From Alphaproteobacteria bacterium (GTDB taxonomy: Bacteria; Pseudomonadota; Alphaproteobacteria; SP197), in NCBI GenBank assembly GCA_964291265.2, contig OZ219747.1, forward strand, positions 2,560,001-2,624,000: a stretch of 64,000 bases of DNA. Direction: 5' to 3'. This document shows positions 30,875 through 36,958 of the stretch, piece by piece (positions within the stretch are counted from its first letter, which is position 1; every line of letters begins with the position of its first letter). The position numbers and the translations under genes were made by a program. A model generated the notes under the pieces. That model saw nothing but the letters and a program-made list of their open reading frames with translations, was not told the origin of the DNA and did not search any database.

Positions 30875-31607
30875 GACGACGCCTCCACCGCCATGACTGC
30901 CGCCAGCACGGCGAGCCGCTCGCCTTCGGGCATCGTCCGGTAGCGCCGCGCCCAGCTCTCTGCGAGGCGCTTGATGCGCTGGCGGTCGATCGAGTTCCTG
31001 CCCGCACACGTATGCCAGTGCGGTCGGCCCGGTGCGAAGTTGAACCACAGCTTCTCGGTGACAACGCAGGCCTGGTTGTTGACCTGGACCTCGGCCGAGC
31101 GCCAGCCGGCGAGGTGCGTGTCGTAGAGCCGCGAGGGATAGCCGGAGATCATCACCTGGCAGGGCAGCGACGTCAGGATGTCGAGGAGCGCAACATGGTC
31201 ATCGTCCGTGCAGTCGAAGCGGTAGCGGCGCTGCGACCGGCGCGTCGACTGCACGTAAGGCGGGTCGCAGTAGACCAGCTCGCGGCCCTGGAAGGCGAAG
31301 GTCTCGAGAAAACGCAGGGCGCAGCCTTGGTGAAGCTCCACCGGATAGTCACAGCGGAAGGTGTCGATCGCCCGGCGGTTGAGGTCAATGCCGATGCTGC
31401 GCAGCGCCGGTGGCTTGCGCTTCATGATCGCGCCGCCCCCAAGGAACGCCTCGATGTACACGTCATGCGGCGGCATGGCCGCGACGATCGCCTTATATGA
31501 CCAGGTTTTGTCCCCGTGATGATGCAATCATCCACAGCGGTTGGCGGCGGGAAAATGTGGACAACCCCGACTGTGGGAGAGGGCCCGGTCTATGGTTGCA
31601 GAGAGAT

Positions 31608-31808
31608 TCCGCTCCCCTGCGCGATCAAGCACAGGGGAGCGGGGTGCGGGGATCAAACGATCTCCGCGGAGGTTGGTCGGACCGTTTTCGCCTTGGCCTT
31701 ACGGAGCCGTGTGCCAGCTTGGTCGGCCAACCTCCCTTGGCGTCCCTTGCGTCCTGAATGGATGCCTGGGTTTGAACCGAATCATCATAAGGCGAGGAGC
31801 AAGGGACG
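31608..31808 (+). ncRNA. Bridge RNA candidate with target- and donor-binding loops
   Basis: Stem 31668-31683/31721-31735 encloses TTTTCGCCT (31685) and GTGTGCCAG (31709). Stem cgtcccttgc/gcaagggacg encloses ATGGATGC (31758) and ATAAG (31787), matching the donor junction ATGGATG-CT-TAT. Confidence 0.88.
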
Positions 31809-32756
31809 ATGGGCAAGGTAGTAGCAGGGATTGATGTCAGCAAGGCCAGTCTGGACATCTGTGCGGAGGGCCAGACGCATTGTCTTGCGAACGACGCCAC
31901 GAGCTGGCGGGCGCTGAACACATGGCTTCGCAGCCTCAAGGTGACCCGTGTGGTGATGGAGGCGACAGGTCGCTATCACCGCAAGGTTCACCAGTGTCTT
32001 CATGACCGGGGCTTCGAGGTTGTCCTGGTCAACCCGTTGCGGGCCCGGCGCTTCGCCGAGGCGTTGGGCCATCTGGCCAAGACCGACCGCGTCGACGCGT
32101 TGATGCTGGCCAAGATCGGCACGATGCTCGGCGATCTTGAGCCTGTAGCTCCTCAGGATGCCTTCCTCAACAACCTGGAGGATCTCCTGGTGGCGCGTAC
32201 CGCGCTTGTCGACGTGCGGACCATGCTGAGGCAGGTGGCAGATGAGGTGGATGGCGAAGGCGAGAACGTCACAAGGGCCTCGGCAGACGATCTCGATGAT
32301 CGGATTGAGGGGCTGAATGCGGAGATCAAAGCGGTGATCGCCCGTGATCCCGAGCAGGCCGAGAAGTACGGCATCCTGATCTCGATCCCCGGTATCGGTC
32401 CGGTGACCGCCGCGGCCCTTCTTTGCTGGATGCCCGAACTCGGCAGTCTCGACCGCCGTCAGGCGGCAGCCTTGATCGGGGTGGCGCCGATGGCCAACGA
32501 CAGCGGCCAGCACCACGGTGCTCGGCACATCCGAGGCGGGCGAAGAAGGCCACGCGATCTCCTGTTCATGGCCGCAACCGCGGCGACACGCTTCAACGCG
32601 GACCTGGCAAGAGTGTTCGAGCGCCTCAAGACCGCCGGCAAGGCCCACAAGGTCGCGATAGTCGCCGTGATGCGCAAGCTCATCGTGCTGGCGAACACCT
32701 TGCTGCGACAGCAGCGCTGCTGGTCGCCCGAAGCACCGGCACGGTCGCCGGCGTGA
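31809..32756 (+). CDS. IS110-family DEDD recombinase
   Basis: GIDVSK, VMEATG, KTDRVDA, SIPGIG, DSG (catalytic Ser), AVMRKL. Confidence 0.95.
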
Positions 32757-32785
32757 CCTTGCGAGTGAGCGAAGGAGACACCCTC

Positions 32786-33076
32786 ATGGCCCTCACCCCT
32801 GCCGAGAAGCAGCGCCGTTATCGGGAACGCCGCAAGGCCGGCATCCCTGCCGTCCACCACCGAAAGCCCTGCGACCGTCGTTCCCGTGCGCAACGCTGGC
32901 GCGATGCGGTGGCCGAGCTCGGTGCATTGCAGGAGCATTATCGAGACTGTCTCGACAGTCTTCCCGACTCCCTGCGCGACACGGCTTACGGAGAACGTCT
33001 GCAGATCATCGTCGAGGCCGACATCGAGGCTCTCGAGGAGATCGAACCGCCGCGCGGCTACGGACGGGACACATGA
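32786..33076 (+). CDS. IS110 accessory small basic protein (MALTPAEKQRRYRERRK..), 96 aa
   Basis: RBS AAGGAG; homolog at 4319..4609. Confidence 0.8.
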   Translation: MALTPAEKQRRYRERRKAGIPAVHHRKPCDRRSRAQRWRDAVAELGALQEHYRDCLDSLPDSLRDTAYGERLQIIVEADIEALEEIEPPRGYGRDT

Positions 33077-35023: not shown

Positions 35024-35314
35024 TCATGTGTCCCGTCCGTAGCCGCGCGGCGGTTCGATCTCCTCGAGAGCCTCGATGTCGGCCTCGACGATGATCTGCA
35101 GACGTTCTCCGTAAGCCGTGTCGCGCAGGGAGTCGGGAAGACTGTCGAGACAGTCTCGATAATGCTCCTGCAATGCACCGAGCTCGGCCACCGCATCGCG
35201 CCAGCGTTGCGCACGGGAACGACGGTCGCAGGGCTTTCGGTGGTGGACGGCAGGGATGCCGGCCTTGCGGCGTTCCCGATAACGGCGCTGCTTCTCGGCA
35301 GGGGTGAGGGCCAT
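35024..35314 (-). CDS. IS110 accessory small protein, copy 2
   Basis: Same translation as 32786..33076. Confidence 0.8.
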   Translation of the reverse strand: MALTPAEKQRRYRERRKAGIPAVHHRKPCDRRSRAQRWRDAVAELGALQEHYRDCLDSLPDSLRDTAYGERLQIIVEADIEALEEIEPPRGYGRDT

Positions 35315-35343
35315 GAGGGTGTCTCCTTCGCTCACTCGCAAGG

Positions 35344-36291
35344 TCACGCCGGCGACCGTGCCGGTGCTTCGGGCGACCAGCAGCGCTGCTGTCGCAGCAA
35401 GGTGTTCGCCAGCACGATGAGCTTGCGCATCACGGCGACTATCGCGACCTTGTGGGCCTTGCCGGCGGTCTTGAGGCGCTCGAACACTCTTGCCAGGTCC
35501 GCGTTGAAGCGTGTCGCCGCGGTTGCGGCCATGAACAGGAGATCGCGTGGCCTTCTTCGCCCGCCTCGGATGTGCCGAGCACCGTGGTGCTGGCCGCTGT
35601 CGTTGGCCATCGGCGCCACCCCGATCAAGGCTGCCGCCTGACGGCGGTCGAGACTGCCGAGTTCGGGCATCCAGCAAAGAAGGGCCGCGGCGGTCACCGG
35701 ACCGATACCGGGGATCGAGATCAGGATGCCGTACTTCTCGGCCTGCTCGGGATCACGGGCGATCACCGCTTTGATCTCCGCATTCAGCCCCTCAATCCGA
35801 TCATCGAGATCGTCTGCCGAGGCCCTTGTGACGTTCTCGCCTTCGCCATCCACCTCATCTGCCACCTGCCTCAGCATGGTCCGCACGTCGACAAGCGCGG
35901 TACGCGCCACCAGGAGATCCTCCAGGTTGTTGAGGAAGGCATCCTGAGGAGCTACAGGCTCAAGATCGCCGAGCATCGTGCCGATCTTGGCCAGCATCAA
36001 CGCGTCGACGCGGTCGGTCTTGGCCAGATGGCCCAACGCCTCGGCGAAGCGCCGGGCCCGCAACGGGTTGACCAGGACAACCTCGAAGCCCCGGTCATGA
36101 AGACACTGGTGAACCTTGCGGTGATAGCGACCTGTCGCCTCCATCACCACACGGGTCACCTTGAGGCTGCGAAGCCATGTGTTCAGCGCCCGCCAGCTCG
36201 TGGCGTCGTTCGCAAGACAATGCGTCTGGCCCTCCGCACAGATGTCCAGACTGGCCTTGCTGACATCAATCCCTGCTACTACCTTGCCCAT
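35344..36291 (-). CDS. IS110-family DEDD recombinase, copy 2
   Basis: Same translation as 31809..32756. Confidence 0.95.
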
Positions 36292-36958
36292 CGTCCCTTG
36301 CTCCTCGCCTTATGATGATTCGGTTCAAACCCAGGCATCCATTCAGGACGCAAGGGACGCCAAGGGAGGTTGGCCGACCAAGCTGGCACACGGCTCCGTA
36401 AGGCCAAGGCGAAAACGGTCCGACCAACCTCCGCGGAGATCGTTTGATCCCCGCACCCCGCTCCCCTGTGCTTGATCGCGCAGGGGAGCGGAATCTCTCT
36501 GCAACCATAGACCGGGCCCTCTCCCACAGTCGGGGTTGTCCACATTTTCCCGCCGCCAACCGCTGTGGATGATTGCATCATCACGGGGACAAAACCTGGT
36601 CATATAAGGCGAACTGGCGGAAGGTAGGGGGTGAAAGTCCCCTGAAACGAAGGAGTAACCAAACCACGTTTCTCCGCGAGCCGTGCGTCGGTTCCCGCGA
36701 GGGGGCAGGCGAAGCGTCGGTAGCGGTACGGATGGGCAGGGCTAATGAGCACCGAAAAGTCCGTTGTTCGGGGTGCCGAGGCTTTCGCATCGGTCGAAGG
36801 CAACATCGCAGGCATCGATTTGGTGAGATGTCGGCGAGCCCCGCGGTGTCGGAGAACCCATGCACGTCCGCACGCCTTCTGTTGGGACCCTGGGAGGTCT
36901 TCGAACTATCCCGCCTGTCGTGGCGGGACCGTGTAGGGAAAGGAGAAAGCCGAAGCCT

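Follow-up and report, generated by a model that had tools for sequence, protein, structure and literature searches.

The window analysed in this study, a stretch of 64,000 nucleotides (nt) from the 4.8-Mb genome of an Alphaproteobacteria bacterium (contig OZ219747.1, positions 2,560,001 to 2,624,000), contains two identical copies of an IS110 element of 1,968 bp and a group II intron in which one of the copies is inserted. Coordinates are positions within the window unless another locus is named. Copy 1 (31492..33459, + strand) lies within a methylase gene, and copy 2 (34641..36608, - strand) sits at nt 8-9 (AG) of the intron. The short CT core is present at both boundaries of each copy, with a single CT in the empty site. 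The recombinase gene (31809..32756, +; 35344-36291, -, in copy 2) encodes 315 amino acids (aa) that match both PF01548 (the DEDD RuvC-like domain) and PF02371 (the Tnp domain with the catalytic serine), and score above the cut-off of NF033542. Among solved structures the protein resembles IS621 (8WT6, E 2e-28) and ISCro4 (9T56, E 4.7e-24), with no further solved relatives, and residues D9, E51, D93, D96 and S232 are in place by alignment to IS621. The guides described below lie upstream of the gene with left before right, and no terminal inverted repeat was seen by eye, so that the features of the IS1111 group are lacking. Judged from its sequence, the window element is a regular IS621-type IS110 bridge recombinase system.

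The non-coding left end of the element is predicted to encode the bridge RNA (31606..31809, +, with approximate RNA ends). As read from the folds, 5' hairpins are followed by a target-binding loop (~31668-31735) and then a donor-binding loop (~31740-31809), all upstream of the gene. The region 31600-31810 has a z score of -6.0, none of 200 shuffles was as stable, and both target guides fall inside one internal loop. The consensus fold of the RNAs of 14 relatives retains both loops, and 4 of its 44 pairs show compensatory changes. The left target guide, TTTTCGC-CT (TTTTCGCCT; 31685..31693, +), holds about 5 informative bases plus the core, and the right target guide is G-TGTGCC-AG (GTGTGCCAG; 31709..31717, +). 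Together they spell TTCGC-CT-GGCACAC. The left donor guide (ATGGATGC; 31758..31765, +) equals the right end of the element and is invariant in 14/14 RNAs; the right donor guide, ATAAG (31787-31791), occupies 31787..31793 (+) together with the handshake bases GC. The donor guides match the joined element ends, ATGGATG-CT-TAT. The two-loop fold, the four guide motifs and their positions, and the match of the second loop to the element junction had all been given in a preliminary description of this DNA, and all of them were confirmed.

That description had also equated GTGTGCCAG with the first nine nucleotides of the intron. The letters do match, but the first G of the right guide, like the first T of the left guide, is invariant scaffold in 14/14 aligned RNAs, so its agreement with intron nt +1 is a coincidence, and we rejected a right guide programmed over nine bases. 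In the aligned sequences, the match to the intron comes down to about 11 variable bases and the core. Recognition would then extend over roughly 5+2+5/6 bases and tolerate mismatches, and such short, tolerant recognition would account for off-target copies such as copy 1.

The intron extends over 34634..38518 (+), from 5' GTGTG at 34634 to 3' AC at 38518, and is split after nt 7-9 by copy 2. RF02005 matches at 36634-36858 with 169.7 bits, and downstream of it lies an intact gene for the intron reverse transcriptase (RT)/maturase of 528 aa (36860..38446, +; PF00078 and PF08388, with TIGR04416 above its cut-off at 356 bits). The host is an IS66 transposase gene (PF03050 in both parts) in antisense orientation to the intron, with its 3' part at 33806..34633 (-) and its 5' part at 38519..39487 (-); direct repeat D4 begins at 38519. 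When the intron is taken to start at 34634 (GTGTGCCAG), the IS66 frame rejoins in frame, linking ...ETSW to RIQSL. The exon-binding site EBS1, CGCAUC, pairs with the exon end GATGCG (the intron-binding site, IBS1), and the 3' end reads ...CGAC at 38518. The window intron thus shows GUGYG...AY ends, EBS1-IBS1 pairing and in-frame exon rejoining. For domains 5 and 6, RF00029 stays below the gathering score in the window, and the hairpins were read by eye.

The core of copy 2 falls exactly where the preliminary description had placed it, at the CT near the intron start (nt 8-9). These bases belong to the 5' strand of the domain-1 basal helix. In an intact sister intron, nt 6-10 pair with nt 290-294 in the predicted fold (probability 1.0). 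The insertion therefore parts GUGUG, the exon and the exon-binding site from the ribozyme by 1,966 foreign bases, and the bases that now precede intron nt 8 are not GUGYG. From the established structure of group II introns (PMC4424553), it is likely that the insertion stops the copy-2 intron from splicing or moving.

The genome has 27 empty sites that match the 14 bases perfectly, and every one of them is the 5' end of a group II intron. With the perfect 12-mer the figure is 27 of 28, and there are 50 further 12-mers with one mismatch and 606 with two. Only 721 of the 1,048,576 possible CT-centred 12-mers are present in at least 28 copies in the genome, and 3 of 5,000 random guides matched any site of the window intron family perfectly. 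The genome holds four full copies of the element, three of which are at an intron 5' end (two in the RT-bearing variant, one in a variant without open reading frame (ORF)). This agrees with the earlier proposal of the intron 5' end as the multicopy site cognate to the guides. The two element copies in the same intron variant have flanks whose identity stops 90 nt and ~60 nt outside the intron, which, together with the two intron variants, indicates at least two and probably three separate insertion events. We hold with good confidence that this is an IS621-type IS110 element with guides for the first 14 bases of a multicopy intron, and that three of its four full copies occupy this site. Its arrival by bridge-RNA-guided recombination at the CT core, and the block to intron splicing and mobility, are both likely.

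The intron itself is abundant, with about 30 copies in the genome. Besides the window RT gene there are 14 further copies at 99.6-100% identity, one of the 14 in an interrupted intron, and identical intron copies are present in several exons, which suggests recent mobility. A second, ORF-less intron copy in the window (19216..19874, -, 3' limit approximate; RF02005) has an empty perfect target at its 5' end. This ORF-less derivative of ~660 nt has 13-14 genome copies, about as many as the full intron, and probably moves with RT supplied in trans. At another locus (G000:C2:2127353-2127370), an IS66-type end interrupts an intron 5' stub, of the GTGCG variant, at nt ~16.

By analogy with IS621, rare excision would yield a circle whose joined ends form both a promoter and the donor ATGGATG-CT-TAT (PMC11208160, PMC13626964). 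The junction promoter would drive expression of the bridge RNA, the RNA would pair with donor and target, and the recombinase would exchange strands at CT. A -35-like TTGCCG (33439..33444, +) faces TATGAC (31496-31501) at 17-nt spacing only across the joined ends. The pair has 8 of 12 consensus matches, which is under the scan threshold of 9, and its layout is kept in 10/10 relatives listed; the promoter scan found no promoter in the linear form of the element. In contigs of three sequencing runs the empty methylase site was present and no circle joint was found, which tells nothing on rare circles since contigs drop rare forms. The handshake bases (CT at 31718-31719, after the right target guide, and GC after the right donor guide) form no Watson-Crick pairs before strand exchange and three after it. 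By the rule given in PMC13626964, insertion should be favoured and reversal rare. The excision of IS110 elements is scarless (PMC11208160, PMC13626964) and requires flanking target bases (PMC11187229), and with an engineered IS621 RNA in vitro it was ~2,000-fold weaker than insertion (PMC13626964). On this analogy, excision of the window element is probably rare, and the reversibility of intron inactivation envisaged in the preliminary description is doubtful.

Relatives of the element were collected by genome scans, which gave 52 loci (49 of them decayed copies in one metagenome-assembled genome, MAG), and from metagenomes, which gave 5 loci. Of 61 related genomes, 23 gave matches, and seven genomes within the genus hold close relatives, at about 74-85% protein identity; relatives on plasmids reach ~47% identity at best, over the full length. 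We compared 32 regions around the better matches, counting loci recovered twice only once. Fourteen natural guides are found on one ~80%-identical scaffold in the genus and two metagenome contigs. The scaffold and donor guides are nearly fixed, and six bases per target guide vary freely. Target guides match their own flanks at 7.6 of 10 positions versus 4.2 when shuffled, and none of 5,000 shuffles did as well (23 guides at 38 sites, with this genome and the MAG included and five copies carrying the G004b guide left out). With this genome and the decayed MAG left out, the match is 7.62 of 10 versus 3.64 +/- 0.58, reached in none of 10,000 shuffles (10 guides at 19 sites). The signal extends from about -5 to -1 and +1 to +5, is weaker at +6 and falls to background at +/-7. 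The donor guide likewise tracks the left end of the element, with ATAAG facing CTTATA here and ACAAG or GCAAG facing CTTGTA in 22 of 23 rows of relatives (one was not read). This covariation upholds the original assignment of an IS621-type bridge system and its guides.

The intron 5' end, however, is not a target of the family as a whole. The guide of the window element was found in none of the 32 other family genomes, despite the presence of the intron start GTGYGCCAGGCGAA in 13 of the 33 family genomes (12 of the 32 others), and we therefore rejected targeting of the intron 5' end throughout the clade, as the preliminary description would have implied. In 400 genomes sampled from the class, one weak match of 36 nt was the only trace of the bridge RNA. 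In the MAG (L003, L005-L052) the clade is present in about 50 copies with internal deletions. Their guides include many single-base variants and their flanks are repeatedly shared, possibly a record of guide drift in non-autonomous elements.

We then examined where relatives insert. Both ends are present in 54 of the 69 junction sets, 24 of them in the genus and metagenomes and 30 in the MAG. Five of the 24 insertions are inside group II introns, which make up 0.9% of this intron-rich genome. In one genome (G010:C2, locus L096), the inserted element carries a different guide, which fits its site perfectly over 5+2+6 bases. The insertion is immediately 5' of domain 5: the RF00029 match starts at the core, with 33.5 bits, below its cut-off; the domain 5 scores at this locus and at L097 are 33-34 bits (E 0.002-0.004, cut-off 40). 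The 13-mer target of this guide has 7 empty sites in G010, each of which lies downstream of one of the 7 copies of that intron, in antisense orientation (five at 1.7-1.9 kb and two at 4-5 kb, with inserts assumed; two were verified in the DNA), and single matches in five other genomes. With a second guide (G004a), two of three copies lie in the linker between domains 2 and 3 (D2/D3) of two of the three RF02005 introns of the G004 genome, in different exons. From the predicted fold, the alignment and the general structure of such introns, we take the core of these insertions to be in the J2/3 linker. The guide has one mismatch at its intron sites in G004 and is perfect to an intron variant of the window genome, and the sole near match to its target in G004 (L121) had no Rfam intron match. 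All four intron sites of relatives are in ribozyme sequence and none is in the RT ORF, which makes up most of the intron. A ribozyme library built from these genomes was matched at 10/10 by 2 of the 13 other guides and at 9/10 by 2 more, one of the latter at the 3' end of an intron, on a contig that lacks flanks. Random guides reached 10/10 in 29 of 20,000 cases and at least 9/10 in 632 of 20,000. Two MAG junctions (L006 and L029) that matched the intron library were dropped, as the match was to exon sequence past the intron end.

Of the other 19 insertions, four of the eight G009 copies are in an IS5-like transposase gene (two by Pfam, two by shared flanks), one insertion is beside an rve integrase domain, and several are in host genes or spacers. 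Pfam gave a name to few of the flanks in the MAG, most of which are therefore only putative transposase genes.

From the compared sequences, different guides repeatedly hitting different conserved intron sites is a stronger pattern than the single target that was originally described, and repeated natural retargeting onto conserved multicopy ribozyme motifs is likely. The same scaffold would have been retargeted many times across the genus, with guides drifting on a fixed scaffold. Guides that match conserved, multicopy and dispensable sequence would spread best and hence be favoured. Intron ribozyme motifs (the 5' end, the D2/D3 linker and the start of domain 5) would then form one recurring class of sites and the transposase genes of other insertion sequences (IS) another. 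The catalytic motifs of introns would suit guides because they are constant across intron lineages. Taken further, the clade may live on group II introns as an RNA-guided hyperparasite, its guides having turned at least three times, each time independently, to catalytically essential motifs (those three) chosen for their conservation across intron lineages, so that one RNA-guided mobile element disables another and introns in turn insert into the recombinase gene. We offer this broader reading tentatively, with rather less than even confidence.

Several observations weigh against the main explanation of guided insertion into introns. In the window genome, the element occupies just 3 of the 30 perfect intron sites. 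Copy 1 is outside any intron and splits the adenine methylase gene at ATCGC-CT-GGCTC, with 2 mismatches in the 12-mer, and a 43-nt left-end remnant lies at a further non-intron site, so that two of the five left ends in the genome are outside introns. Among relatives, 19 of the 24 insertions and all 30 in the decayed MAG are outside introns. The preliminary description had proposed inspecting the flanks of homologs. These follow their own guides, but their being mostly outside introns is in part the outcome that it had named as contrary to its view. Elements with guide G004b are in an intron (domain 1) in one of five copies only. At the start of domain 3, the G005 guide (L097) has 6 of 10 Watson-Crick matches; its wobble pattern was no commoner than in a reversed control, and we rejected it as intron-directed through wobble. 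The G002 guide resembles domain 1 and was likewise discarded: it has no perfect site in five genomes, its near matches are not introns, and it is inserted in a methyltransferase gene. In the library test, 9 of the 13 other guides match at 8/10 or less, like random guides, and the nominal P values (2e-4 and 6e-4) are overstated because the genomes are kin, the library comes from the same genomes and three guides were given a second register. Insertions in mobile DNA also outlive purifying selection better than insertions in genes.

The order of events may also have been the reverse, with the match following insertion. A loosely matching element would have landed in an intron and its guide then mutated toward the flanks, since excision and spread to sister copies need pairing. 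This leads to the same end state and is compatible with the targeting of the intron as such; we regard it as unlikely overall, and yet as a serious contender. The dependence of excision on flanking target bases (PMC11187229) fits with it, as do the many relatives at imperfect sites and the single changes by which guides in the decayed MAG differ among copies. The G004a guide, with its mismatch at the sites that it occupies and its perfect match to an intron variant of another genome, speaks against adjustment in place and fits with tuning elsewhere followed by transfer; it hints that the match came before the first insertion.

Much less probable is that the match is a coincidence, with an element of low specificity landing at CT plus a few matching bases and its intron copies persisting since mobile DNA is neutral. 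It is true that most insertions of relatives are outside introns, that the genome is crowded with mobile elements, that the off-target site of copy 1 is also multicopy and that the finding was picked for its striking look. However, a random guide is perfect to the intron family in only 3 of 5,000 cases, two guides that were not chosen in advance are also perfect, and the four intron sites of relatives are all in the ribozyme. Least probable of all, and unlikely to hold, is a role serving the host as a brake or reversible switch on the intron, in which insertion silences and scarless excision restores: the sites struck are structurally essential, excision is scarless and an intron has in turn inserted into a relative's recombinase gene, but so few sites are filled and so many RT copies remain uninterrupted that intron spread is hardly limited, the handshake pattern and the weak excision of IS621 in vitro disfavour restoration, and no host gene depends on an intron that lies antisense in an IS66 gene.

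The probable RNA-guided targeting of a multicopy intron 5' end can be placed among what is known of the family. Partridge and Hall (2003) reportedly described IS1111-group elements that target other mobile DNA. The general theme of a parasite of mobile elements is thus already known. Landing of IS110/IS1111 elements in repetitive extragenic palindromic (REP) sequences, attC sites and Tn21 ends has been described (PMC11187229, PMC11208160), with IS4321/IS5075 in Tn21 terminal repeats, ISKpn4/ISPst6 in attC and ISPa11 in REP on the IS1111 side (PMC11187229). Like these, the window element is an RNA-guided DEDD element, and its landing place is a functional, conserved site within other mobile or repeated DNA. 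In the IS1111 elements, however, the guide RNA is downstream of the gene with the order reversed, and their targets are DNA recombination sites, whereas here the targets are catalytic RNA motifs of a retroelement. The closest system is IS621 of Escherichia coli (Durrant 2024, PMC11208160; PMC13626964; 8WT6), which shares the DEDD and serine recombinase, the left-end bridge RNA with target loop before donor loop, the CT core at both ends, the junction promoter layout, the insertion-biased handshake bases and a multicopy natural target. It differs in having REP rather than the group II intron 5' end as target and in a guide of 7+2+2 where the window guide is effectively ~5+2+5/6. The window element also has a 96-aa passenger ORF and a long right end, and the proteins are distant (E 2e-28). 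ISCro4/IS622 (10.1101/2025.05.14.653916; 9T56; E 4.7e-24) has the bridge architecture and CT core in common, with no intron target named in the available part of that preprint. The natural reprogramming of ISEc11 versus ISXne4 (PMC11187229) likewise concerns close relatives whose guides and targets changed together; here there are 14 guides on one scaffold, at least three of which have come to match a single class of host element. Nesting of mobile elements, with introns as perpetual landing sites, is also seen in twintrons and where introns home into IS (PMC4424553; RmInt1 in ISRm2011-2, PMC4496777). In those cases, however, the invader is the intron, which can splice out, whereas here the invader is a DNA recombinase, which splicing does not remove from the intron.

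An abstract-level literature search, with ISfinder and most subscription journals outside its scope, found no publication on group II introns as a guided target. The word 'intron' is not in the main text of PMC11208160, PMC11187229 or PMC13604230. Among 7 supplementary files of PMC11208160 it is in one, where the two passages shown are software text. No such target is named in the available parts of 10.64898/2026.10.21.760802, 10.1101/2025.05.14.653916 and PMC4496777, and the preprint supplements may list such sites. The intron target thus appears undescribed, as does the way in which relatives have repeatedly converged on ribozyme motifs of introns; the mechanism itself is the known IS621 one. 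If so, group II intron ribozymes are added to REP, attC and transposon ends as landing sites of IS110/IS1111 elements. Two RNA-guided elements, one DNA-recombining and one retro-mobile, would here be in conflict, and the insertions would add to the ways in which bacterial introns may be lost. With 14 guides on one scaffold, mapped sites and several guides converging, selection on guides becomes directly testable, which bears on how new bridge-RNA targets are naturally acquired.

The reverse nesting was seen in a close relative (G010:C5; L104:573-2490), where a group II intron lies inside the recombinase gene, after ...GAGCTGG near codon 33. Its exon end is that of its IS66 site in L122, and it starts with GAGCG, as do the introns at L122, L123, L125 and L141, not with GUGYG. 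Insertions within or adjoining SRAP genes were found for two different guides in two genomes (L092, L115). The D12-type adenine methylase gene split by copy 1 (30862..33502, -, start codon at 33502; PF02086, E 6.5e-7) has 15 empty copies of its site in the genome, one at window position ~45290. Upstream of its methylase gene, a multicopy methylase/IS66-like element also carries the initial 57 nt of the IS110 left end, at 95-96% identity (33592-33650 and 45424-45482 in the window). This embedded end is present at 13 genome places with a constant flank, as a captured, truncated end of an older insertion. A second left end (G000:C2:4158459-4158673) is truncated, has another left guide (CTTGGGC-CT) and is broken within the target loop. 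The passenger ORF (32786..33076, +; 96 aa) matched no Pfam or NCBIfam family. It is common to another abundant element, with relatives at ~79% DNA identity at window positions 3973-4612 and dozens of genome positions. The right end of the IS110 element holds two imperfect repeats of ~130 nt with palindromic GGTAACGTTACC cores (33065-33329), and elsewhere in the window a 24-nt unit is present in six to seven tandem copies (2840-3031).

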